A program made the position numbers and the translations under genes. A stretch of 64,000 nt of DNA from Eledone cirrhosa. Its lineage: Eukaryota. The notes beneath the pieces were generated by a model. It saw only the letters and a list, made by a program, of their open reading frames with translations, did not search any database and was not told where the DNA came from. Position 1 is the stretch's first letter. Every line of letters starts with the position of its first letter. The stretch spans positions 135,160,001 to 135,224,000 of the forward strand of contig OZ024741.1 in the NCBI GenBank assembly GCA_964016885.1, written 5' to 3'. Positions 4,880 through 63,579 of this stretch are shown piece after piece.

Positions 4880-5001
4880 TATATTTCGTTTATCATATTT
4901 AGGCACTATGTAAATGTATTATTTAAGTTATATATATATATATATATATATAACTTAAATAATACATTTACATAGTACCTAAATATGATAAACGAAATAT
5001 A
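4880..5001. repeat. Fold-back palindrome, ~50-bp arms around (TA)n
   Basis: tatatttcgtttatcatatttaggcactatgtaaatgtattatttaag / cttaaataatacatttacatagtacctaaatatgataaacgaaatata, one mismatch. Confidence 0.9.
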
Positions 5002-11963: not shown

Positions 11964-14060
11964 CTATTGGGGTGATAACCCGTTTAGTTTTGGTTTAAAT
12001 TTGTTAAGGAATAGATTTTCTTTGTTTATTCTTTGTTGCTGTGTGAACGAATCTGAGCACTTGTAGAAGGGGAAAATTTTAAAGTTGGGTAGTGTCATTC
12101 CTGCGCAGTTCGCAATATGGCTGCTCAAGGGGATTTTTCTTGTGTTAGCGTCCCGGATTTGTTGGCGGTGGATGGTCATTCTTTTGCGTAATGAGGTGCC
12201 CGTCTGTCCTATGTAGTTGTGTTTGCACCCACCGCAAGTTATTGCGTAAATCAAGTTCTCCGAGTTGCAGGTGAAATTGTTTTTTACTGTAAATGTTTGG
12301 CCATCTTTAAATGTAAATTTGTGTCCTTCAGTGAGGTAGAGGCACGTTCCACAGTTTGTTCTACCACATTTGGTAACTGTAGGGTTGAGGATTGGTTTGG
12401 GTATATTTGGTCCAGTGAGAATGCGTTTTAGTGATTTGGGTTGTCTTTTACTTTTAAGGATCTTGTGTGTTTCAAGAATAGACTTCATTTTTACATCTTT
12501 AAGTAGGATGGGGAGGTTTTTGTGTAGGTGATCAAACATTTCGGTATTTCTGGGGTTGAAAGTGGATACATATGGCAGGGTGTTGAGTGTGGTTTTCTGT
12601 TTTGGATTGTTAAGTTGATGGGGATTTAGGTGTTTTGCCCTGTCTATTCCATTGTTGATTATTTCAAGTGGAAAGGCTCTTAAGATAAGGGTGTCTTTTA
12701 GTTCCTTTAGTCTTTGCTCCCGTTTCGGTGGATCTGATACTATGGTACATATACGTTTGGCCAAATTGTAAGGAATGTTAAGTTTTGTGTGTTTTGGGTG
12801 ACTTGATGTGAAAAAGAGGTATTGCTTGGAATCTGTGGGTTTATAGAATATATCTGTATCTAATTTCCCGTCTATTACAGAGATGAGAATATCCAAGAAG
12901 GCTAATTCCTTGGGATTGGATTCCATTGTGAATTGTATGTTATTATATATGTTGTTTATCATGTTTTTAAACATAGCAAGTGAGTTCATGTCTTCTTGCC
13001 ATAGGATAAAGCAGTCGTCTAGATATCTTTTCCAATTGGCTTTCAGGTGTGTGTGGAAAGAGTCTCCAAATAAGAGAAGGGACTGACTGTATATTTGTTG
13101 TTCATGGAATCCCATGACTAGGTTGGCATATGTGGGTGCTACTTTCGTGCCCATTGCCGTACCTGATACTTGTCTGTATGTTGAACCATTGAATGTGAAG
13201 TAGTTATTTTGTAGGATAAAGCGGAGTCCGTCAGTGATAAAATCTTTGTTGATGCGTGTCGGTATTTCTGATGGGTGTGTGTTAAGCCAGTATTGGACTG
13301 CTGTTATTCCATAGTTGTGGGGTATGTTTGTGTAGAGGTTTATTACGTCAAAGGAGACAAAAATTGTATTTGCACTTACTGTTTTAGGGAGGTGTTTCAG
13401 CATGTCAAGGTCATCTCGTATGTAGCTCTGTATATGTTGTAGAAAGGGTTTCAGTAGGATGTCCAGAAAGTTGCTAAGTCTGTGGGTTTCACATGTAGGG
13501 CCTGCTATAATTGGCCTGAGTTTTAGGTCTTCTGGTGGTGTTAGTTCAATGTAATTGTTGGTTGAGGTGTCACATGCATCGTTTATGGGTTTACATTTGT
13601 GGAGTTTCGGTAAGCCGTAAAAAGAGCTTGTATTGCATTTGAAGTGGCTTATATAGTTAAACTCTTTTGTGGTTAAGCTGTTGCGGTATTTATTCAGTAA
13701 GGTCAAAAGGTTCCCCATTGTTTTGGTGTGTTTGTAGTTTTCTGTCTTTTCATAGTATGTGTTGTTTTCTAAAATGTTAAGTGCGAGGGTCCTATAGTAG
13801 TCCGTATTCATAATGACAACAGTACTGCCTTTATCGGCTTCTTTGATAGTTATCTCAGGGTTGTTTCTAAGTGTGAATAATTCTTCCCATTCGTGTGTAG
13901 ATAGGTTTGATTTCGTGTGTTTATTTGTAATTTTTTCATAGGGAAAGTTGGTGATGTGTTCGCAGTACGTGTCCAGTGCTTTATTTCTTCCCTTTTGTGG
14001 GCAGAAATTGCTTTTATTTCTAACCAGTGATTCGTCTTCAGTGTTGGTGTCGTTGTGGAA
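11964..14060 (-). CDS. PLE polyprotein: reverse transcriptase + C-terminal GIY-YIG endonuclease (open frame, N-terminus truncated)
   Basis: Frame stays open upstream of the annotated ATG (13811) to the inversion junction and includes IKEADKGSTVVIM; FYGLPKLHK, LRPII, SFDVINLYTNIP, GTAMG, RYLDD, FLDI, YKPTD; CGRTNCGTC linker; LIYAITC...YIGQT. Confidence 0.93.
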   Translation of the reverse strand, partial: FHNDTNTEDESLVRNKSNFCPQKGRNKALDTYCEHITNFPYEKITNKHTKSNLSTHEWEELFTLRNNPEITIKEADKGSTVVIMNTDYYRTLALNILENNTYYEKTENYKHTKTMGNLLTLLNKYRNSLTTKEFNYISHFKCNTSSFYGLPKLHKCKPINDACDTSTNNYIELTPPEDLKLRPIIAGPTCETHRLSNFLDILLKPFLQHIQSYIRDDLDMLKHLPKTVSANTIFVSFDVINLYTNIPHNYGITAVQYWLNTHPSEIPTRINKDFITDGLRFILQNNYFTFNGSTYRQVSGTAMGTKVAPTYANLVMGFHEQQIYSQSLLLFGDSFHTHLKANWKRYLDDCFILWQEDMNSLAMFKNMINNIYNNIQFTMESNPKELAFLDILISVIDGKLDTDIFYKPTDSKQYLFFTSSHPKHTKLNIPYNLAKRICTIVSDPPKREQRLKELKDTLILRAFPLEIINNGIDRAKHLNPHQLNNPKQKTTLNTLPYVSTFNPRNTEMFDHLHKNLPILLKDVKMKSILETHKILKSKRQPKSLKRILTGPNIPKPILNPTVTKCGRTNCGTCLYLTEGHKFTFKDGQTFTVKNNFTCNSENLIYAITCGGCKHNYIGQTGTSLRKRMTIHRQQIRDANTRKIPLSSHIANCAGMTLPNFKIFPFYKCSDSFTQQQRINKENLFLNKFKPKLNGLSPQ

Positions 14061-14714
14061 ATCTGACCTTTATAAAATAACCCACACCCCCAAATAACTT
14101 CTCATTCACTACCAGAAAGGCACACAGCAGTCAACTTGCGGCTACCAAGACGAAAACTACTATGAAATCCCACAATGAATTTTATACTTGAATTTTCAAA
14201 TCTCAAATTTTAACTCTTCCTATTATTAATTTTTTTTAATATTAATCAACATTTGAAAAGATGGCTTTTGCAGACCCATCGAAACCGGTCATTTTTTATA
14301 CCCTTTATTATTTCCTTACCTTATAAAATTATGTTTTTTCACAAAAAAGTATTCTGTCTCTTATATATTCCATGTGCCATTACCAACCTCAATTTTCTCT
14401 CTCTCTCTATATATATACATATCAATGGAAACTATATTTATAAAACCACATTTATTTAATTACATAAATTTCAAAGGTACCAACATTTTGGTACACCCTC
14501 ATCACATAAAATACAAATTGTTTTTTTTATAAATGGTGACATACCCATGAAACCAGAACTTATCGGTTCAGGTTCAGTTTGGTACCCTTGAAATATATAT
14601 AATAAAATAAATATACTTTTATAAATATAGTTTCCATTTATTAATATCATTGATATTATACCCCAGAAAACTTGTAGAGTGCTTCGAATCTGTTATAAAC
14701 AAAATATCCCTTTA

Positions 14715-14748
<34 letters not shown>

Positions 14749-14825
14749 TTATTCCGGGTTGAATCGGAGGTAACCACAGTAAGTAACGTACTTAATACAT
14801 AGCAGAGTATAAACGTTTTAATATA

Positions 14826-15329
14826 GATGAGATTCTACAGGACTAGAAGTGTTTCATCCTTTAGGAATCATTAGAAATCTGGCTTTCCAACAAATAAATG
14901 TTGTGGTATTTATATCTTTTCAGGTGGTAGGAGAGGTTGGGGAGTGGGATGGGTGGAGGGCATTGGTTGAAAGAAAAGGGAATTCATTAAAAGCTAATTG
15001 TTTAAGGCTATAATATATATTTAGAGTGACAAAGGCAGAAAGAATTCTATAAACAAGTTCAGAATGGGGTGCCACTCCTTATTTTAAAGTTTCTCTTAAG
15101 CTAACAATGCCTATATTTCAGGTGTCTATAAGATTGTTGGGGGTCGGTCATGGTTGATAGATTTAAAGAAAAGGGAAATTCTTTAAAAGCTAATTCTTTA
15201 AAGCTCTACTTAGAGTGACAAAGGCCAAGAGAATTCTATAAACCAGCTCAAAATATTGGGTGCCTAAGATATCATTATTGTCATATTTCTCTTAAGCTAT
15301 ATTCCAGGTGTCAACAGACACATTCACAT

Positions 15330-15345
<16 letters not shown>
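14826..15345 (-). mobile_element. ORF-less HHR-bearing repeat; left arm of a long inverted duplication
   Basis: Reverse complement of 22325-22840. Confidence 0.8.
14830..14880 (-). ncRNA. Hammerhead motif with G5A core change (probably inactive)
   Basis: agattt-CTAATGA-ttcctaaaggat-GAA-acacttctagtcctgt-A-gaatct; paralogue of 22786. Confidence 0.6.
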
Positions 15346-15360
<15 letters not shown>

Positions 15361-15361
15361 C

Positions 15362-15480
<119 letters not shown>

Positions 15481-15575
15481 TATATATATATATACACACA
15501 CTAATACATATATATATACATATATATATACATATACACACATATACACACATATATACTCACCCACACATACAT

Positions 15576-16163: not shown

Positions 16164-18685
16164 TTGAGCTATTTACTGTTAGAAGTCACCATGTTGAGCA
16201 AGCAGGAACTCAGGATATCACTTAAGTCCATTTCTATCTCGAACAGGAAGACATACCTCAAACTCCTAATACAGAGTGTCAACTCTTTCATCCGAAGAAT
16301 ACGATGGAAGGCCTTCCACTTCGACCGTGCGGATGCTGCTGACGCCGGAAGTACAGCAAACAGATATGGATTTACCACCTGCAAGAACCCTCCACACAAC
16401 ATCCTGCTGGACCCTTTTGAGAAAGATCTATTTAACTTCGTCAGGAGCATTAAATTGAAAAAGCATTAAAGACACAAGAATAATTTCCTCACAAAATTAG
16501 CAACAACTATAAAAAAATTTAAAGATAGCCACCTCTTACATGTTATGTCTGACAAAACTAAAAATCTATACACCATGACTCCTGAAACTTACAACTCTTT
16601 CCTTCTTAAGGAACTTAATAAAAACTATAAAAAAACTATACCCTCCAGTGTAAACTTACTTAACCGAAAAGCCCAGGCTTCGGTTAAGGACTTGCATCTG
16701 GATAGATTTACCCACCCTTATGTACCTACAACCCCAAGGTTTTCTCTCAAAGATCACAAGCCAAACTTTATAGAGAACCCATCTATTAGACTTATAAGCC
16801 CAACCACATCCGACTTGGGTCGTATCAGTAAGAACATCCTTGATAGGATCATCCCTGGGCTACGAGATAATGTCACCTACAAGCTGTGATCCAACACCGG
16901 CCAAGTCATTAGATGGTTCTCCGATCTAAGGTCCAAGGAATCTATGAGGTTCCTCCAATTTGACATTGACAGCTATTACGCTTCAATAACTCCGGCACTG
17001 CTCAACAAAGCATTAACCCTAGCCAGCACCAACTCTGACATAACCAATAATGAGATTGACATCATACTTATGGCTAGGCAGACCATCATTGAATTCAACG
17101 GAGCACTCTGGACTAGAAAAGACAGAATAGACAACTTTGACATCACTATGGGCTCAAGTGACTCTGCGCAAATCACCGATTTAGTTGGAATTTACCTATT
17201 ACATAACATCAGAGCTGAAATGCAACCCTTGCAAGGCGGAATATATAGGGACGACTCCCTATTTGCAGTCCACAATTGCACTAATCGAGGCATTGACTTG
17301 CTAAAAAAACAATTACATAGATTCTTCAAAAATAACGGTCTCTCTATCACTATCGAGCCGAACCATAAAGTAGTAAACTTCCTAGACGTTACCCTAGATC
17401 TTAACAATAACCTATATTACCCTTATCATAAACCAGGTGAAATACTTACATATATTAGCCCACACTCTAACCACCCACCGGCAGTCATCAGAGCAGTAAT
17501 CAAATCTATCTCGTATAGGATCTCCATGATATCAGCAAATGAGGAGATATTTATAAACCATGCGGCATATTATAATAAGGCTCTCTCTGAATCTGGTTAT
17601 GAACAGTCTATTTACTACATACCTAAATGCCATAACACAGCACTTCCCCACAACCATAATAAACTTAACACTAGAACTAGAAATACCTTAGCATATAGCC
17701 AGATTCGCCGGAATTTTAGCAGTAACAGCACCTATACAGGGAACCTTAATGGTAGCACTGGCCTGCTTCCCACTCCAAGTAGCAAACTAAAAATCAACCC
17801 TAGAATAGGAATGAGCAATGGGATGACAAATAACAAATGCCCAGGTAATAATAACCCTATGAAGGCCCCTACCAACTCCACTAGAACCCCTAGAAGGAAT
17901 AGGCCTAGAAATATCACCTGGCTTAACCCCTCATTCTCATCTAATCTAGCCACTAGTATCCCTAAACGCTTCTTCTCTATCTTATCTAAAATCCCCTCCC
18001 CAACCATAGATACTACAAACTCTTTAATAAAAAACAACATTAAAATCTCATTCTCCACAACACCTAACTTAGCATCGCATTCAGTAACCATCATAAACTA
18101 AGACAGTATAACTCCCACACCGCGGTACCACCCCCCCATCAAATACACCACGCCACTACACCAATACTTACTCTAGTAGCACACCTCCCCTATCTAATCC
18201 TTCTAGCACTGGCCAACCGCTTAGTTTAAACCTACTCTCACTAACCGCAGAAGTAACTGCAACAGCCGTTATCCTAATGCATGCCCACTAAATGGACATT
18301 GCCTGACACCCAATATAGTTTATAGGTGCACAGTTAAAACTGCTTCGCATACCAGCTCCTATATCGGCTCTACCTCTAACCCTTTTAAGGTACGCTATAA
18401 CGCGCATCTGTTGTTAGGGTCTCGGAAGAATTCCGAGACCCTAACAACAGATGTTCGACATCTCTAGCTAGACTCATTAAAAACCTTAAATTAACCAATA
18501 TTGAACACTCACTAACATGGGATATCTTGACTAGGGCCCAACAGTTCAATGGACGAAGAAACTTTTGTGACCTCTGTCTTACCGAAGCATATTACATAAC
18601 TCTATCACGACCTCTACCGATTAACGATAGAACGGAGGTAACTATTAGCTGTCAACATCGAAGGGCTAATTCCTTCGCCAACTGA
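16164..18685 (+). pseudogene. Disabled PLE RT + GIY-YIG ORF
   Basis: One frame 16164-18101 with stops at 16467 (TAA) and 16887 (TGA): RRIRWKA, DKTKN, LKDHKPNF, FDIDSYYASI, TMGS, GIYRDD, FLDVTLDL; after frameshifts CPLNGHC..IVYRC..YIGST..RY and CDLC..CQH, stop at 18683-18685. Confidence 0.88.
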
Positions 18686-20974: not shown

Positions 20975-21770
20975 CTATCCGTTAGGGTATAACGTGGGGC
21001 TGTAATACAGGAAAGTTCTGTGCAATTTATGTTTACAAGCCGAAATTGCCTCGGATTCTTTGTTTAAGATGTGGTCTGTGGCGTAGATTATTTCCAGGGC
21101 CTTAGCGGCGCAGAGGTCACATGGTCTTTTATTTCCGTTAGACGATCTAGCCCTAGCTAGGATCTCCCAATGTAACTTATATTGGGTGTGGTTGTCTTTT
21201 AGACTCCAGATATAAGCTGAAAGTGACGTCATATTCTTTCTTAGAGGGGAACGTAAATAATGGGTATGCATGTAAAGACGCTGCTTGAATCTATTGGCGG
21301 TTAACCCTATGTAGGCCCTACGGGACGTGGGTGTTTCGACCTTACATTTGAAGACAATGTTACTAGAGAGGCATTTCCCGGATAGGGGGCAATCCTACAA
21401 TTACAGTTAGTACTAACTACAGGGTTGCACGTGTTCCTACGGCTAGGTAGTTTAGCTAAATTTGAAGCTGTGATGTTATGTGCAAGGTTAGGAGTCGTAG
21501 AGTAAGACATTTTAATAGTATTTCTATGAAAAATTTTATTATATTTATGTGTAGGGGAAAATGCTTCGTAATAAGGGATAGAAATATCTTAGCTAATAGT
21601 GTGGCCACCGCCATATTATATGGTGGGTTATACCATATAATGCGTCGGGATCTATTTCTTCTAGGTCTATTCTCGTACTCTGTATATGCTACCTTATCGA
21701 CAAATCCACTCCAAGCAAGAGCTTCATTGTAATATGTGGAATGGTCGTTGAAAATATGTCTACATATATT
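20975..21770 (-). pseudogene. PLE fragment (Hydra-like thumb, linker and GIY-YIG)
   Basis: YNEALAWSGF, RSRRIIWYNPPY, SYSTTPNL, CNCR, TSLSAYIWSLKD, CDLC, SACKH across frameshifted ORFs; homologous to 17500-18685. Confidence 0.85.
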
Positions 21771-21976
21771 TTCTACGACTTCTTTTATACCATAAACGTG
21801 GTTTTGTCTTTGCGTGTAATTGTTTTTCACCGCTCCAAATAATGACGTATTATATTCGTTTTTTCCCGTTCTTTGCCAGGGAACGTTTCCACGAACCAAA
21901 GTATCGTCTTCCTGTCTTCCTCCGGTTGCAACGTTTTTTGAAATATTCACTTCTGCATTCACAGATTGACTTTGTT

Positions 21977-22027: not shown

Positions 22028-22154
22028 TTAATCTGTTATTTTAATAAATATTTGCTCTACGGTTCTTATATATTTGATATATATTTATCCTTATCGAGCC
22101 CTCTTTGGATTTTAGTCTTCAAATTTTTATTATTACTATATATATATATATATA

Positions 22155-22270
<116 letters not shown>

Positions 22271-22294
22271 TATATATATATATATATATATATA

Positions 22295-22324
<30 letters not shown>

Positions 22325-22341
<17 letters not shown>

Positions 22342-22835
22342 ATGTGAATGTGTCTGTTGACACCTGGAATATAGCTTAAGAGAAATATGACAATAATGAT
22401 ATTATATGTACCCAATATTTTGAACTGTTAGAATTCTCTTGGCCTTTGTCACTCTAATTATAGCTTTAAAGAATTAGCTTTTAAAGAATTTCCCTTTTCT
22501 TTAAATCCATCAACCATGACCGACCCCCAACAATCTTATAGACACCTGAAATATAGGCATTGTTAGCTTAAGAAAAACTTTAAAATAAGGAGTGGCACCC
22601 CATTCTGAACTTGTTTATAGAATTCTTTCTGCCTTTGTCACTCTAAATATAAATTATAGCCTTAAAGAATTAGCTTTTAATGAATTCCCTTTTCTTTCAA
22701 CCAATGACCTCCACCCATCCCACTCCCCAACCTCTCCTACCACCTGAAAAGATATAAATACCACAACATTTATTTTTGGCAAGCCAGATTCCTGATGATT
22801 TCTAAAGAATGAAACAGTTCTAGTCCTGTAGAATC

Positions 22836-22840
<5 letters not shown>
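22325..22840 (+). mobile_element. ORF-less HHR-bearing repeat; right arm of the inverted duplication
   Basis: Reverse complement of 14826-15345; internal ~190-bp imperfect duplication. Confidence 0.8.
22786..22836 (+). ncRNA. Type I hammerhead ribozyme, canonical core
   Basis: agattc-CTGATGA-tttctaaagaat-GAA-acag ttctagtc ctgt-A-gaatct; stem I 6 bp, stem III 4 bp, GUA site. Confidence 0.82.
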
Positions 22841-22881
<41 letters not shown>

Positions 22882-24233: not shown

Positions 24234-24234
<1 letters not shown>

Positions 24235-24304
24235 GAAACATATGTAATATGTAATTGGATACGTATACGATGCAACAATGATTCTTTGTTATCTTATAAA
24301 TTAA

Positions 24305-24372
<68 letters not shown>

Positions 24373-24452
24373 ATATATAGTATTAATTTATAAGATACCA
24401 AAGAATCAGTGTTGCATCGTATACATATCCAATTACATGTTACATATGTTTC
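24234..24452. repeat. Fold-back inverted repeat, ~75-bp arms around (TA)n
   Basis: tgaaacatatgtaatatgtaattggatacgtatacgatgcaac... mirrored by ...gttgcatcgtatacatatccaattacatgttacatatgtttca. Confidence 0.9.
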
Positions 24453-24599
24453 ACTGTCGATCAGCTCGAGGAACGATATATTAATGATATATTTTAACAT
24501 GATATATATATATGTGTGTGTAGATAAATATATATGATTATATATGTGTGTATGTAGATAAATATATATGTTTATATGTATATGTGTGTATGTATATAT

Positions 24600-28105: not shown

Positions 28106-28136
<31 letters not shown>

Positions 28137-28168
28137 AGATCAAAAGATGGTTAAATGAGTTCCATGTA

Positions 28169-28235
28169 TTTTATTATGCGCATTTCAAAAACAAATATCA
28201 TCATGCAATAACATTTGTGTTTTCATCAGAAAAAA
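28169..28235 (-). ncRNA. Hammerhead motif (mirror of 28361)
   Basis: tttttt-CTGATGA-aaacacaaat...atttgttttt-GAA-atgcgcat-A-ataaaa. Confidence 0.7.
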
Positions 28236-28360
28236 TAGGACGACATGATATGAAGTTTAAAAAACACTTGTGGATAGTGCAGTTTTAAATCAACATATTA
28301 TGTTGATTTAAAACTGCACTATCCACAAGTGTTTTTTAAACTTCATATCATGTCGTCCTA

Positions 28361-28427
28361 TTTTATCTGATGAAAACACAAATGTTATTGCATGATGATA
28401 TTTGTTTTTGAAATGCGCATAATAAAA
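28361..28427 (+). ncRNA. Type I hammerhead ribozyme
   Basis: ttttat-CTGATGA-aaacacaaatgttattgcatgatgatatttgttttt-GAA-atgcgcat-A-ataaaa; stem I 6 bp; palindromic stem III. Confidence 0.78.
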
Positions 28428-28552
28428 TACATGGAACTCATTTAACCATCTTTTGATCTTATATATTATGTATACTCCAGTCCTACAAACTGTAGAGTGC
28501 TTCTTATCCGATATCTGTATTGCTTTATTGTACTACAATAAAACTCACCTCC

Positions 28553-30733: not shown

Positions 30734-30847
30734 CGAATATTAATAATAACATTCGATTCATTTGAAATTATGCAAACAAGCCTCAATTTTATAGCCATGT
30801 CAGTAGAATGAACGCTTCATTCTTGCTCATATGTTGGCATGCGAACA

Positions 30848-30897
30848 GAACTGCAGACACTAATATTTCTGGGTATCACCCTTCATCAGTACAGCTC
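30848..30897 (-). ncRNA. Type I hammerhead ribozyme (M1)
   Basis: gagctgta-CTGATGA-agggtgataccca-GAA-atattagtgt-C-tgcagttc; stem I 8 bp; GUC site. Confidence 0.8.
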
Positions 30898-31189
30898 ACT
30901 GTTCACCTGCCAAACTGTCAGAGCTAGTGAAAATATATGCTATTTTCAAAAATACACAGTGACTGATCGGCCCGAATTGCATATTAGCAGACTGGCTGAT
31001 CAGTCAGATCTGCATATTAGCAGATCCACTGATCAGCCAGATTTGCATATCAGCAGACTGGCCATTTATTGTATTCAGCCATGGAGAGCGAAATTTTCTT
31101 TTTTATTTGAATTTGGCAAAGCCGGCCATTTATTGCTCCTATACAGGAAACTGATTTATTATTATTTTTTTTTTAAACTATAAATAAAT

Positions 31190-32586: not shown

Positions 32587-32813
32587 ATAATAGAGTATAT
32601 GTTCCTACACGCACAAGGCGCTAAGGGACACATGTATTGTCCAACCATATGCTAATGTGGTTCAATGGCAGGTTAATAAATTAACGAGCCAGAACATTAT
32701 ATATGTTCTGGCTCGTTAATTTATTAACCTGCCATTGAACTACATTGGCATATGGTTGGACAATACATGTGTCCCTTAGCGCCTTGTGCGTGTAGGAACA
32801 TATACTCTATTAT
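32587..32813. repeat. Fold-back palindrome, ~110-bp arms
   Basis: Centre near 32700 (gaacattatatatgttc); a few mismatches; lies 5' of the minus-strand HHR at 32293. Confidence 0.92.
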
Positions 32814-33658: not shown

Positions 33659-34042
33659 CAAAACCTAAAATAAACATAGAAAGTTCCTAATAAACCTGTA
33701 AATTGGGAAAAATCTAATAATTTCCCCGAAAAAGATTTTCTTTTCATGATACAAGGGGCCGGCCGAATGCGTGGTGTTGTTTCTTCGATGGTTGGCCCCT
33801 GTATATAAATAAATATATATACGCACACGGTAAACAGCAGAGGCCACGTGTTATCCCTCACCAACAAAACCTTCTTCCCCTCGGAAAACCCCCAGTTGAT
33901 GTATGCGAAATCCAAAATATAGGGACAATTAAATCTCTCCCAATGCAACTGTATCTCGTGTTATTATTTTTTACACTTTTCCTGCGATCTGCATTGTTGA
34001 GGCTTCCAAAACGACCATATATATGTATATATATATATATAT

Positions 34043-34167
34043 ATAACGAAGGAGATGTGGTAAGGAACCAGATGGACCATAACGCACCAAAGTACTCAAT
34101 ACTTTTTAGTCCAGAATTAGCCGTCGAAACGGCTTGAGCTGAGCCGTCGGAGTCCTACTTGTTCCTA
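34043..34167. mobile_element. Short repeat with internal inversion and an HHR 3' half; related to 46002-46176
   Basis: GAA-acggc ttgagctga gccgt-C; 34043-34101 is in the opposite orientation relative to the 46 kb copy. Confidence 0.6.
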
Positions 34168-34180
34168 TATATATATATAT

Positions 34181-34540
34181 ACTCAGCCGTTAATATGCAT
34201 AAGGTAAGTATATACGTTCAACAATCTGGCAGGAAGGTATACGTTGCTGACGATAGCTAATAAGCTTGAAACTAGTACAGCGTTCCTTTGTCAGTGTTGA
34301 ACAAACGAGCAACGATGGTTGCTAGACACTACGGCTTAATACGGGATGTTTGTTTACAAACACACCGAGCATTATAATAAATGTTCGGTGAATCCATACG
34401 TACATATATATATGTGTGCATGTATGTATATATACATACTACTGTACGTCTGTATACATATATGTATGTACGTGTACATACTTATATTTAAGTAACAGCC
34501 GTACTAAGAGTGGGAAATGAAATTTCGTTTCATTTTTTCC

Positions 34541-34545
<5 letters not shown>
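34181..34545 (+). mobile_element. Non-autonomous HHR mini-element, family M2 (5'-truncated)
   Basis: Homologous to 45156-45532; flanked by (TA)n. Confidence 0.82.
34241..34283 (+). ncRNA. Minimal type I hammerhead ribozyme (M2)
   Basis: acgttg-CTGACGA-tagctaataagctt-GAA-actagt-A-cagcgt. Confidence 0.82.
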
Positions 34546-44470: not shown

Positions 44471-44804
44471 TTTATTCTTATTATTTTTTATAAAATGTTC
44501 TCAACACTGTTGGATGGTACCTGAGGTTTCAAAGCCTACTCTAGTACACGCCTGAGAGGTGCTATATCTGCTAGTGTTGCTTTTCTTTCGGGCAATACCA
44601 AATAATATACGTTTAGCCCTGTACTTATTATAGGGTATGTAAGGTTTGAAAAATAAAATACAAAGGCTGACGTTTTGGTTATTTAAAATATGGTTCATTA
44701 CAAGGGGTATATATGTTATATATGTGTATAAATATATATGTAAGTACACACACGCACACATACATATATATATATAAATTAATACAATGTATATATATAT
44801 ATAT

Positions 44805-45527
44805 ATAAGTATGTATACGTACATACATATATGTATACAGACGTACAGTAGTATGTATATATATACATACATGCACACATATATATGTACGTATGTATTT
44901 ACCGACATTTATTATAATGCTCGGTTTGTTTGTAAACAACATCCCGAATATATACGTACATATATATATGTGTGCATGTATGTATATATATACATACTAC
45001 AGTACGTCTGTATACATATATGTATGTACGTATACATACTTATATTTAAATAACAGCCGTACTAAGAGTGAGAAATGAAATTTCGTTTCATTTTTTCCAT
45101 TTATCGTTTTCGGTGCGCTCGGCCGATTAACTCACTCGATATGCAAATTAGGCTGCTCAGCCGTTAATATGCATAAGGAAAGTATATACTTTCAGACGTT
45201 CAATCATCTGGCAGGAAGGTATACGGTGCTGACGATAGCTAATAAGCTTGAAACTAGTACATCGTTCCTTTGTCAGTGTTGAACAAAAGGGCAACGATGG
45301 TTGCTAAACACTGTACGGCTTAATTCGGGATGTTTGTTTACAAACAAACTAAGCATTATAATAAATGTTCGGTAAATCCATACGTACATATATATATGTG
45401 TGCATGTATGTATATATATATATACTACTGTATGTCTGTATACATATATGTATCTACGTATACATACTTATATTTAAGTAACAGCCGTACTAAGAGTGAG
45501 AAATGAAATTTCGTTTCATTTTTTTCC

Positions 45528-45532
<5 letters not shown>
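44805..45532 (+). mobile_element. Family M2 mini-element with complete PLE-like architecture (inverted piece + partial tandem)
   Basis: 44805-44949 is an inverted copy of 45323-45472; 44952-45104 is a direct copy of 45380-45532; unit ~430 bp; no ORF. Confidence 0.85.
45223..45265 (+). ncRNA. Minimal type I hammerhead ribozyme (M2)
   Basis: acggtg-CTGACGA-tagctaataagctt-GAA-actagt-A-catcgt. Confidence 0.82.
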
Positions 45533-45579
<47 letters not shown>

Positions 45580-45919: not shown

Positions 45920-46001
<82 letters not shown>

Positions 46002-46003
<2 letters not shown>

Positions 46004-46174
46004 AACGAAGGAAATGTGGTAAGGAACCAGGTCGACCATAATGCACCAAAGTACTCAATACTTAGGGTAGTAGAGTGGGTAATAGGAACAAGTAAGACCC
46101 CGACGGCTGAGCTCAAGCCGTTTCGATGGCTAATTCTGGACTGAATGAAAATTTATTCTAGAATAATACTTGTT

Positions 46175-46248: not shown

Positions 46249-46748
46249 ACTCTACATGGCTGAATACCATAAATGTATTCTGAGTTTTTCGAATATTAAT
46301 AATAATATTCAATTCGTTTGCAATTATGCAAACAAGCCTCATTCTTGCTCTTGAATCTGGCAACGCCGGCCATTGATCGTGTACAGCAAACTGACTGGCC
46401 AGTCTGCTGATATGCAAATTTGGCTGATCAGTGGATCTGCTAATATGCAGATCTGACTGATTAGCCAAATTTGCTAATATGCAAATTAGCCCGATCAGTC
46501 ACTGTATATTTTAGAAAATAGCATATATTTTTACTAGCTCTGACAGTTGGCAGCTGAACAGTGAACTGTACTGATGAAGGGTTATATCCGGAAACATTAG
46601 TGTCTGCAGTTCTGTTTATATGCCAACACAAGAGCAAGAATGAGGGGCTCATTCTACTGACATGGCTTTAAAAATGAGGCTTCTTTGTACAATTGCAAAC
46701 CAATCGAATATTATTATTAATATTTCAAAAACTCAGATTACATTTATT
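46249..46748 (+). mobile_element. Non-autonomous HHR mini-element, family M1
   Basis: 46270-46352 is an inverted copy of the 3' end (46630-46745); three palindromic ~33-bp subrepeats, then the HHR; flanked by (TA)n. Confidence 0.85.
46563..46612 (+). ncRNA. Type I hammerhead ribozyme (M1)
   Basis: gaactgta-CTGATGA-agggttatatccg-GAA-acattagtgt-C-tgcagttc. Confidence 0.82.
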
Positions 46749-51931: not shown

Positions 51932-52233
51932 ATAACTAACAAAAAGTTATCGCTCTACATGGCTGAATACCATAAATGTAATCTGAGATTTTCGAGTATT
52001 AATAATAATATTCGATTCGTTTGCAAACAGCCTCTTTTAAGCCATGTCAGTAGAATGATCTTCTTATTCTTGTCTTTGTGTTGACATGTAAACAGAACTG
52101 CTGACACTAATGTTTCTGGGTAATTACCATTCATCAGTGCTTAAAAGCTTAAGCTGACATGGTTTAAAAGAGGCTGTTTGCAGATTACATATATTGTATT
52201 CAGCCATCTAGAGCGATAATTTTTTGTTAGTTA
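51932..52233 (-). mobile_element. Family M1 mini-element with inverted termini and an HHR truncated in stem I (52095-52140)
   Basis: ataactaacaaaaagttatcgctctacatggctgaatac mirrored at 52196-52233; CTGATGA-atggtaattaccca-GAA-acattagtgt-C. Confidence 0.78.
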
Positions 52234-52379: not shown

Positions 52380-52825
52380 CATTCATCTTTTTCCATTTCT
52401 CCGAGGGTTATAAACCCCACTATCAGGATAGAAATTTCTTTAGTCTAAAATACGGTGAAAGCTTATAATTTCTAATTTCTAATTTTCAAACTCGCGCAAC
52501 GTTTCAAAAAACATACTTACATGTTTACATTTATAATTTGCTTGTTTATATATATATATATATATAATTTTATATATATATATATATATAATTATATATA
52601 TATATATATATATTTCGTTTCTGAATTTGTTTAGCAAGATTCTTTATCTGAAAACGTGTGTTGAAACCGATATTGTTATACTTTGGGAGGGTCATGTTGC
52701 CAATAAGAAACACATACACCAGGTACTTTTACTCCAATTTATTATAAATTAAATTTATAAATTTAAGAATTTATAAATTTCCGGTTGGTTGGTTGGTTCC
52801 ATAACCGGATGGTTGTTCATATATT

Positions 52826-52868
52826 GTCAAAGTTCTTTCGTCACACATTCTGTGACCTCTTCAGTGAC
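52826..52868 (-). ncRNA. Minimal hammerhead ribozyme in pLTR
   Basis: gtca-CTGAAGA-g gtcaca gaatg tgtgac-GAA-agaact-T-tgac. Confidence 0.7.
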
Positions 52869-53062
52869 TGGGGATTCTTTTCTTTGTTTTGTGCCTCTCC
52901 TTTGTTCTGTCCTACGCCATTTTGTTTTTGTGTGTTGTGTCCTTAGTTTGCGCATGTGTTACATCCGGGTGTCTGTGTGTGTTTTTATTTGTTTATTTAT
53001 TTGTTTATTTACATGTTACTGGTTGGTTGTTTGTTCTATGTGTGTGTGTTTTCATTTTGTCC

Positions 53063-53990
53063 TTAATTGTAAGTTGTCATGTTGCTATTCCATTCATCTT
53101 TTCTATTTAATTTGGGTTGGAGTTCATTTATGTTTATTGCCTCTGTGATTTGTCTAAACATTGTATCTTTTCTGTGTGTAGATTCTATTTTTATTTCTAT
53201 GTTCTCTAATTTTCCCTTATGTTCTATTTTAGCATGTTGGTGGAGTATTGATGATTCTTTTTTATCTTGAAGTTTTCGCCAGTATTCATTTAACCGTTCT
53301 CCTATGCTACGAGCTGTCTCACCTATGTACACTATATTCTTATCTCTACATTGTCCTTCAGTACATCTTATGCTATATACTACATTTCTAGTTTTACAGT
53401 TAATATGGGGGCTTAGTTTACAGATTATGCATTTCTTATCTATACAGGGAGGTCTTTGAAAAGGGTATGTATTGCTAATAAGTGTTTTTTATGGAGGTAC
53501 CTGGTTTTTCTACTATCTTAATATTAAGTTAATGTTTATCTAGGGCCCTTCTAAATTTGTAAGCTAATTCACCTCTAGGGGTTGTATTGATGATCATTAC
53601 ACTCTGGTATTTATTGCTATCATACCATGAGTTTACTCTATTAACCTTATTCCAAGTTCTTTCTATTCTATTCCAAAATTTGCTTCTATTTGCTCCATTT
53701 GCTCCATTAGTATCATTATTTAACATTTTTCCCATTTGGTTCTGGCTCCTCTATATACTCTGATTTTATCTCTCTGATTGTAACCAGAGAACTGCATACG
53801 GTAGATGAAGTGTTGTATGTGTCTCTCTAGTTCTTTGAGGTTGCACATGCGGGACACGTTTCTCATCACCCGTACCAAATCCGCAATCAATATGTTGATT
53901 TTGGTGTGGTCCGAAACAGCTGAGTTTCGGTGGATCAGATATTTGGAAGTCATGGGTTTGGCATAATGGGAATGGAGGATTTGTTCACAT
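53063..53990 (-). pseudogene. PLE RT thumb + GIY-YIG, frameshifted
   Basis: ORF pieces 53720-53990, 53529-53735 and 53063-53332. Confidence 0.82.
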
Positions 53991-54119
53991 CCTCCATTCA
54001 AATCATTCCATTCCCAGAAGCCAGAACCAAATGGGAAAAAATGGGAAATAATGATACAAATGGGACCTGCTCTTGTATAGGAGCAAAGGAGAGGCACAAA
54101 ACAAAGAAAAGAATCCCCA

Positions 54120-54162
54120 ATCACCGAAGAGGTCACAGAATGTGTGACGAAAGAACTTTGAC
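54120..54162 (+). ncRNA. Hammerhead motif in the inverted pLTR (CCGAAGA core)
   Basis: Mirror of 52826 with a U4C change. Confidence 0.6.
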
Positions 54163-54554
54163 AATATATGAACAACTGTCCGGTTATGGAACCAACCAGC
54201 CAACCGAAATTTATAAATTCTTAAATTTATAAATTTAATTTATAATAAATTGGAGTGAAAGCAACTGGTACGTGTGTTTCTTATTGGCAACATGACCCTC
54301 CCAAAGCATAATAATATATATATATATATATATACTCGAAGGCGGTCAGCCAAAGTGACATCAACTGGCCCTCTTGATCGCCTTCGAGTCAAAAACGTTT
54401 TTCCTGTTTTTTTTTCCTACATGATACTTATAAAAGTGTATGTACGTTCCTCTTTGTTTATATATATATATATATATTTACACATTATATATATATATAT
54501 ATATATTATAAAATAACCGGAGGCTGGACTGGGGTAATTCCTTAAAGGTTTATT

Positions 54555-62487: not shown

Positions 62488-63524
62488 ATTTGTGATATGT
62501 ATGTGCCTGTGTGAATGTGTGTGAAATTGTGATATGCATGTAAATGTGTGTGTATTTGTGATATGTATGTGCCTGTGTGAATGTGTGTGTGTGTGTGTTT
62601 GCGTATTTGTGATATGCATGTGCCTGTGTGAATGTGTGTGTGTGTTTGTATAATTGTGATATGCATGTGCCTGTGTGAATGTGTGTGTGTTTGTGTATTT
62701 GTGATATGCATGTGCCTGTGTGAATGTGTGTGTGTGTTTGTGTAATTGTGATATGCATGTGCCTGTGTGAATGTGTGTGTGTGTTTGTGTAATTGTGATA
62801 TGCATGTGCCTGTGTGAATGTGTGTGTGTGTTTGTGTAATTGTGATATGCATGTGCCTGTGTGAATGTGTGTGTGTTTGTGTATTTGTGATATGCATGTG
62901 CCTGTGTGAATGTGTGTGTGTGTTTGTGTAATTGTGATATGCATGTGCCTGTGTGAATGTGTGTGTGTTTGTGTATTTGTGATATGCATGTGCCTGTGTG
63001 AATGTGTGTGTGTGTTTGTGTAATTGTGATATGCATGTGCCTGTGTGAATGTGTGTGTGTGTTTGTGTAATTGTGATATGCATGTGCCTGTGTGAATGTG
63101 TGTGTGTGTTTGTGTAATTGTGATATGCATGTGCCTGTGTGAATGTGTGTGTGTGTTTGTGTAATTGTGATATGCATGTGCCTGTGTGAATGTGTGTGTG
63201 TGTTTGTGTAATTGTGATATGCATGTGCCTGTGTGAATGTGTGTGTGTGTTTGTGTAATTGTGATATGCATGTGCCTGTGTGAATGTGTGTGTGTTTGTG
63301 TATTTGTGATATGCATGTGCCTGTGTGAATGTGTGTGTGTGTTTGTGTATTTGTGATATACATGTGCCTGTGTGTGTGTTTGTGTATTTGTGATATGCAT
63401 GTGCCTGTGTGAATGTGTGTGTGGGGTGTATTTGTGATATGCATGTGCCTGTGTGAATGTGTGTGTGTTTGTGTATTTGTGATATGCATGTGCCTGTGTG
63501 AATGTGTGTGTGGGGTGTATTTGT
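62488..63524. repeat. Homogeneous minisatellite, ~45-47-bp unit, about 22 copies
   Basis: ttgtgatatgcatgtgcctgtgtgaat(gt)n ttgtgta. Confidence 0.95.
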
Positions 63525-63579
63525 GCGATATTATGTGTGTACCTTTTCTATTTGAGAACATTTGTGTGAGTGTGAATAT

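Follow-up and report, generated by a model that had tools for sequence, protein, structure and literature searches.

How animal retrozymes move, and what role the hammerhead ribozyme (HHR) plays in Penelope-like elements (PLEs), are questions that the literature leaves unsettled, and both arise at one locus in the window analysed here, a stretch of 64,000 nucleotides from Eledone cirrhosa (G000:C2:135160001-135224000; 3.0-Gb genome, 34% G+C, abundant (TA)n). There, a short HHR-bearing repeat, here called M2, lies inside (TA)n in the arrangement of a PLE insertion. What is this repeat, and how is it copied? We consider it probable that M2 is a protein-free hammerhead repeat with PLE-type ends that likely has its own promoter, is likely cut and circularised, and is likely copied into (TA)n by the PLE reverse transcriptase (RT)-endonuclease of another element. 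The M2 family offers a handle on these questions, with near-identical young insertions, two mapped starts that follow a one-each rule, arrays that report template length and a candidate internal promoter, and in its young families both the proposed rolling-circle step and the hammerhead's function can be tested directly. If our reading is true, a large part of the host's (TA)n-embedded repeats would derive from catalytic-RNA parasites of PLEs.

Unit structure and insertion signature

At the window locus, the left (TA)n target (44787-44805) is followed by an inverted, 5'-truncated arm on the minus strand (44806-44949; approximately u221-366/372, 91-92% identical), a direct 5'-truncated piece on the plus strand (44952-45104; u276-428, 96% identical) that makes a partial tandem with the full unit (45105-45532, plus strand), and the right (TA)n target (45533-45575). 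Unit coordinates u1-428 correspond to window positions 45105-45532; the start point is arbitrary, as the unit is circularly permuted. The unit is 428 bp long, the longest ATG-initiated open reading frame (ORF) on its circularised form encodes 58 aa, and 110 of the 265 bases in its complex part are G or C. The initial annotation of this locus, a ~430-bp element without coding capacity made up of a direct tail piece and a full unit within (TA)n, is borne out in these respects at 44952-45532 and in the flanks, as is the second nearby copy that it reported, which lies inside (TA)n at 34182-34545 on the plus strand (u52-428, 92% identical). It had also taken the inverted piece for a tail piece, which does not hold: this arm stops at a different 3' end, site A, and lacks the 56-62-nt tail. 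Within the full unit, a microsatellite-like AT hairpin (45380-45470) ends at site A (45470-45476), and the tail, with a terminal hairpin, runs from there to site B (45471-45532; site B at 45532), where the second copy also ends. Predicted circular folds place site A at a small hairpin and site B in a single-stranded stretch past the last hairpin.

The exact 33-nt ribozyme core of M2 has 9,489 matches genome-wide, against none for the control. These cores are dispersed, the first 100 falling in 80 clusters. One set for analysis comprised 64 loci sampled consecutively from the first 34 Mb of contig 1, with six duplicates dropped, and a separate set comprised the 30 best BLAST hits. M2 copies differ from the majority row by a mean of 2.9% at non-diagnostic sites. 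Contigs matched to the window locus contain nothing but variants of the family. Among 103 runs in 65 clusters, 5' ends are scattered across the whole unit, while 3' ends are concentrated at site A (~u366-372; 44 runs) and site B (u428; 44 runs), with 15 elsewhere. Beyond site B, 35 cases continue into a further unit and 20 into (TA)n; 8 continue into something else, six of these being mutated read-throughs. The spread of 5' ends over the unit, together with the frequent occurrence of a further unit after site B, means that the template lacks a unique 5' end. Units within one insertion belong to the same subfamily, the difference at diagnostic sites being 0.09 in 34 tandem pairs and 0.11 in 39 inverted pairs, compared with 0.44 between loci.

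The two 3' ends are used in a regular way. Of 61 head-to-head insertions in which both ends could be resolved, from M2 and its sister families M2b, M6 and M7 (described below), 60 pair an arm ending at A with an arm ending at B (M2 21/21, with 9 unresolved; M2b 10/10, with 1; M6 14/14, with 1; M7 15/16, with 2), and the sole exception, L340, is a 29-base piece. According to the available text of PMC11167929, the Anolis Poseidon protein, a predicted dimer, cleaves both strands and extends them in vitro, with RT beginning at two sites that bound the tail, and a tail at one end only is described for PLEs in the accessible parts of PMC8557442 and PMC3846280. The agreement of the A+B rule with these start sites and with the one-ended tail is the main reason for assigning M2 to PLE machinery. 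M2 has further traits of non-autonomous PLEs, namely 5' truncation with partial tandems, an AT-rich or microsatellite target and a tail on one arm only. Copying by a PLE RT, as the initial annotation proposed, is thus strongly supported by the insertion signature, in which two fixed 3' ends, a one-arm tail, head-to-head inversions and the (TA)n target all have a place. Twin priming of the L1 type on one linear RNA was rejected, since the 5' end of the B arm does not abut site A, and so was a SINE, as there is no fixed 5' end and no tRNA, 7SL or 5S RNA match in u1-281 (Rfam).

Several individual insertions show features of their own. One M6 insertion (L264:872-1720) lies outside (TA)n and has an apparent 8-bp target-site duplication. 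In L257:1300-1416, L262, L081 and L086, flanking DNA is inverted and duplicated around a (TA)n that lies close to the 5' junction or directly at it. Arms of M-family elements are joined, head to head, to those of other PLE-type elements in L273, L298, L057, L081, L006, L052 and L053, and in L273 a B end faces the A end of the other family. Such mixed joins may come from a single event with two RNAs or from rearrangement afterwards, and they single out no partner.

At least three autonomous PLE families are present in the window. Comparison of these three (30, 24 and 20 loci) with M2 found no sequence or promoter module in common, and the Neptune-type (11964-14069), Poseidon-type (16890-18098) and second Neptune-type (53066-53488) candidates were set aside as partners. 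The few matches from the partner search are separate M2-type insertions in flanks. An element with an M2-like tail, considered as a partner, proved to be another ORF-less sister, and a hammerhead pattern aimed at the partner returned the sister family M7. The PLEs of the window have structures of interest in themselves. The Neptune-type element at 11964-14069 (minus strand, inverted end 14059-14420) is a 5'-truncated member of a very young family with 99% identical open frames, and it has a long TG/TA-rich 3' region and a hammerhead-like motif that has a palindromic stem III and a degenerate core. Inverted repeats of 708 bp (14825-15530 and 22139-22841, with a hammerhead core at 22792) surround Poseidon-type ORF pieces at 16470-18101 (plus) and 20975-21974 (minus). 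The second Neptune-type family (52610-54320) has inverted ends, a long-stem-II hammerhead and two 3' ends like A and B.

Hammerhead ribozyme and candidate promoter

The full unit carries a type I hammerhead on the plus strand (45223-45265), with stem I at 45223-28/45260-65, the core CTGACGA at 45229 (34247 in the second copy), stem II at 45236-49 and stem III at 45253-58; the cleavage triplet GUA ends at 45259, and the cut is predicted 3' of that position. An extended helix on the same strand (45197-45284), which covaries between families, flanks the hammerhead and is predicted to keep the cut ends together. In M2, stem I has 6 bp, stem II has 4 bp on a U.U base and stem III is the palindrome ACUAGU, whereas the min-HHR of PLEs has a helix II of 7-8 bp and a helix I of 4-5 bp in the accessible portion of Cervera and de la Pena (2014). 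These stems place the M2 ribozyme with the short-stem-III type I hammerheads and not with the PLE min-HHR. The initial annotation of one minimal HHR is thus right as to the single ribozyme, but its form is the short-stem-III type of retrozymes. Among the listed Rfam matches of the window, and in u1-281, there is no hammerhead; the Rfam miRNA matches were dismissed as TA-repeat artefacts.

The hammerhead stems covary across families, as judged from an alignment of 12 sequences from M2, M2b, M6, M7, L180 and M4 (M3, which was misaligned, was omitted). Here, 85.5% of cells are paired and there are 39 double changes, a level of pairing reached by none of 500 shuffles, and controls with slid positions give 31-47%. 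Counted by pair, 11 show a double change, which does not exceed the shuffles (94 of 500 as high), and kinship among the sequences inflates such counts. A stem I pair that differs between the two window copies, ACGGTG/CATCGT (G.U) in the full unit and ACGTTG/CAGCGT (U.G) in the second copy, had been flagged as a change that keeps pairing. This position is indeed paired in 55 of 56 family cores (U.G in 33, A-U in 17, G.U in 5), but the swap between two copies carries little weight, as it goes from wobble to wobble and is one event in one lineage.

The active HHR fold of M2 differs from the minimum-energy fold of the monomer (z -1.4, -0.7). Closing stem III in a monomer is estimated to cost ~5.4 kcal/mol, and the ACUAGU self-duplex has a predicted energy of -4.8. 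This combination would fit the dimer mechanism of hammerhead cleavage described in the available sections of PMC4209133 and, for axolotl retrozymes, of PMC7229834.

Upstream of the hammerhead, M2 likely contains a promoter of the snRNA type, a module that, like the sister families, does not figure in the initial annotation. An octamer-containing 12-mer (45140-45151, plus strand) is identical to one upstream of a U6 gene (L160, octamer at -77) and to one in the sister families. It is followed by a PSE-like TCAG (45157) and TATATA (45183) on the same strand (45157-45188), 26 nt apart as in the U1/U2 promoters of the host, and promoter spacing would put the M2 transcription start at ~45213, 16 nt before the HHR core. 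The promoter of newt satellite 2 has an octamer and a PSE. Host U1/U2 promoters are bipartite, all 9 non-redundant ones having TCAG or TCAA at -56 to -58 and a TATA-like box ~26 nt later; U6 genes have a proximal octamer, exact and at -76/-77 in 2 of 12 loci. The host snRNA genes themselves lie in tandem arrays (U2 at G000:C3:307.35-307.45 Mb, U1 at C2:180.97-181.00 Mb and U6 at C19:31.78-31.84 Mb).

The order and spacing of octamer, TCAG and TATA are kept in seven families, although M2b, M4 and L180 were found by a pattern that contains the module, which leaves only M3, M6 and M7 as independent cases; in M6 and M7 the TCAG position reads CCAC. The PSE site of M3 has the top score of 127,926 positions in the window, whereas the score of M2 lacks significance, with 156 of 300 shuffles reaching it, and a plain TCAR-TATATA motif arises in 31 of 2,000 shuffles. 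The octamer also falls inside a predicted RNA hairpin. We judge Pol III to be the less likely polymerase, given that the octamer-to-TATA distance is 46-48 nt in U6 genes versus 42 nt in M2 and that T-runs near site B would halt Pol III before the next promoter copy.

Sister families, tandem arrays and the template

Several ORF-less families share the layout of M2, including M2b (459-471 bp, ~80% identical to M2), M6 (471 bp, 63%) and M7 (465-468 bp); the pattern that found M7 has 5,781 matches, mostly M7 among the 100 listed. In the window, the ORF-less HHR element M3 has the same promoter module (46396-46724, plus strand; 12-mer at 46478, PSE at 46495, HHR at 46571), with another copy near 30736-31064 (minus strand). 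A piece of M3 is also found at 51972-52138, and this family has three octamer repeats in addition to the best U1/U2-like PSE of the window. M4 (L172-L179, L188, L195) is an older sister in which the HHR core has decayed and the extended stem and promoter module are intact.

The window locus has one HHR only, but two or more successive units, each with its HHR complete, occur elsewhere, in arrays of up to 4.8 units in M2 and up to 22.9 units in the sisters. A young subfamily of M2b has 98 listed units in ~18 places. The young M2b insertions have a median of 6.8 units (16 loci, maximum 16.4) and the older M2 a median of 1.4, although these are different subfamilies and hence do not form a clean age series. 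In the youngest relatives, perfect arrays run to 13-23 units, likely the product of reading round a small RNA circle. Units within an array can be identical (15/15 in L263, 12/12 in L255 and 18/18 over both arms of J1), an identity that may have been smoothed in part by assembly. In addition, 20 of 20 copies in J1 (G000:C1:30831609-30840867), on both arms, carry a cluster of three A>G changes that lies within six bases of the octamer and inside a predicted hairpin. This triple variant is absent from all other M6/M7 loci examined, of which 40 have the common form and 2 have other single changes, pointing to one monomer template read many times as the simplest explanation for J1. Contigs that match the J1 variant at 100% cover 228-270 of L325:190-270, a part that does not include the changed bases. 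Other arrays are less uniform: variants recur with a period of 2, 3 or 6 in L061, L262, L256, J2 and L259, and L253 mixes two templates, patterns that fit multimeric templates or duplication at the DNA level.

A circular or tandem template is supported by these arrays, as the initial annotation had suggested from the partial tandem: 40 of the 103 M2 runs exceed one unit, and the young sisters have long identical arrays. Its call for tandem arrays and permuted ends was likewise answered by self-contained tandems and by 5' ends without a fixed position, in keeping with its view of M2 as a non-autonomous, retrozyme-like element.

In the cycle that we propose, Pol II would start near 45213, just 5' of the hammerhead. 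With the promoter upstream of this start, only read-through into the next unit would copy it, which would explain a need for tandems. Two hammerheads would then pair through the palindromic stem III and cut, freeing a unit-length RNA that contains the promoter, and the extended stem may hold the RNA ends for ligation by a host ligase. For the step after this, the genome carries a signature: copying sets out from nicks in (TA)n at two fixed points, sites A and B, and breaks off at random. A dimeric PLE enzyme would prime synthesis at A from one strand of the target and at B from the opposite strand, and the two cDNAs would join head to head, often at hairpin palindromes. Running round the circle would yield partial tandems, and long uniform arrays in the young sisters.

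A bolder form of this proposal, which we hold tentatively and find somewhat doubtful, would treat the insertions as records of rolling-circle RT by a dimeric PLE enzyme on one small RNA circle with its own snRNA-type promoter, read from two sites for up to ~13 rounds per arm, with the A>G changes of J1 as ADAR edits of one circle and the family as long radiating and still active. A sense-strand A>G excess was sought in four families and none was found, so that a general ADAR signature is rejected and the editing reading rests on the single locus J1.

Three other explanations bear on the template and on array growth. With the same element and PLE enzyme, the template might instead be a linear multimer, transcribed from a tandem source array and cleaved in part or not at all, with the HHR largely dispensable and no circle needed; we rate this as a real rival, though clearly less probable than our own reading. 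It draws on the available text of PMC11167929, in which HHR cleavage is dispensable for PLE insertion in vitro, HHR mutants are without effect and unprocessed RNA is the main substrate, and on the period-2, -3 and -6 variants. Linear cleaved templates would also be expected to leave 5' ends near the cut site, and in M2b 4 of 27 lie within 5 nt of it (p 0.004, uncorrected), but M2 (1/93), M6 (0/37) and M7 (0/46) have no such enrichment. A linear multimer would moreover require source arrays no shorter than the products, whereas the longest among the 98 listed young M2b copies (16.4 units) is an ordinary truncated insertion; locus-specific variants fixed in every unit of J1 and L245, and the covariation of the extended stem across the cut site, also speak against it.

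Insertions might instead be born with one or two units and grow later into satellite-like arrays by unequal exchange or slippage. Local amplification is favoured in the accessible portion of bioRxiv 10.64898/2026.07.22.740005, and it would suit L061, where two diverged units are duplicated as a block (7 shared rare variants), L259, which repeats a 6-unit pattern, and L260, which is duplicated whole. As a general account we consider it quite improbable, as young insertions are longer than old ones (medians above, from different subfamilies), a single inversion can have two long, identical arms (J1, L256) and copies are dispersed (80 clusters among the first 100 cores). The most improbable of these readings, to our mind, is that the unit is only the pseudo-LTR (pLTR) of a long ORF-bearing PLE, left by 5' truncation. 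In its favour, the unit is built like PLE ends, a kinship of vertebrate retrozymes with pLTRs is given in the part of 10.64898/2026.07.22.740005 available to us, and only three of many PLE families were compared; against this, units are preceded by units in ORF-less arrays of up to 23, and none of 70 free 5' ends (M2, M2b, M6/M7) runs into one common upstream sequence. No ORF for RT and GIY-YIG, as expected of an autonomous PLE with its pLTR, lies upstream of the repeat. For the present copies the pLTR reading is thus largely refuted, and an ancient origin from a pLTR stays conceivable.

Relation to known systems

Judged by sequence, M2 appears to belong to the non-LTR retrozymes or non-autonomous PLEs, a class already described, and all sequence-level tests for retrozymes give positive results. 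The literature searched, to which most subscription journals and Repbase/Dfam did not belong, contained no account of the M2 family. As far as the available sections of PMC7229834 and 10.64898/2026.07.22.740005 go, metazoan non-LTR retrozymes (coral, Mytilus, axolotl) are likewise ORF-less, low-GC tandem units (~150-450 bp) with one type I HHR each, a weak palindromic stem III and proposed mobilisation by PLEs, and the U.U at the base of stem II in M2 is as in axolotl HHR_Amex2. Circles have been shown for metazoan retrozymes, and their PLE link comes from co-occurrence and pLTR phylogeny, whereas in M2, known from DNA alone, the insertion signature itself has been counted. The accessible text of the preprint (10.64898/2026.07.22.740005) bases its case for vertebrate retrozymes as non-autonomous PLEs on co-occurrence and pLTR trees, and reports cleavage in vitro for 1 of 9 dimers. 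Unlike metazoan retrozymes, most M2 loci, including the one in the window, hold a single HHR.

Newt satellite 2 is similar by description, being a tandem repeat with an HHR, with a Pol II promoter of the snRNA type inside the unit (cited in PMC2220036, as seen in the portion available) and with dimer-dependent cleavage (PMC7229834, likewise). By contrast, M2 is dispersed in (TA)n and has PLE ends. M2 shares with EN+ PLEs (Penelope/Poseidon, Neptune) 5' truncation, partial tandems, an inverted 5' arm, a one-ended tail and a microsatellite bias (PMC8557442, PMC3846280), as well as two RT start sites (PMC11167929), and with non-autonomous Chlamys elements such as MRC1 the multicopy head-to-tail forms (PMC8557442, PMC3846280), to the extent that these sources were accessible. 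It differs from EN+ PLEs in having no ORF, a tail of 56-62 rather than 30-40 nt, an HHR other than the min-HHR and no 3' similarity to the three autonomous families compared. Plant LTR retrozymes are also non-autonomous and HHR-bearing, with a proposed circular RNA intermediate. In the available part of 10.64898/2026.07.22.740005, however, they have a type III HHR, LTRs, PBS/PPT, 4-bp TSDs and Gypsy partners, whereas M2 has a type I HHR and neither LTRs nor fixed ends.

Other repeats in the window include a further PLE-type 3' end that targets (TA)n and has a palindromic junction (34017-34168 and 45975-46145), which lies beside M2 in many loci, and a minisatellite of 21 copies of 47 bp (62545-63525). 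In addition, near-perfect long palindromes (92-99%) at 4880-5001, 24234-24453, 28122-28474 and 32587-32813 are possibly the head-to-head arms of other elements.
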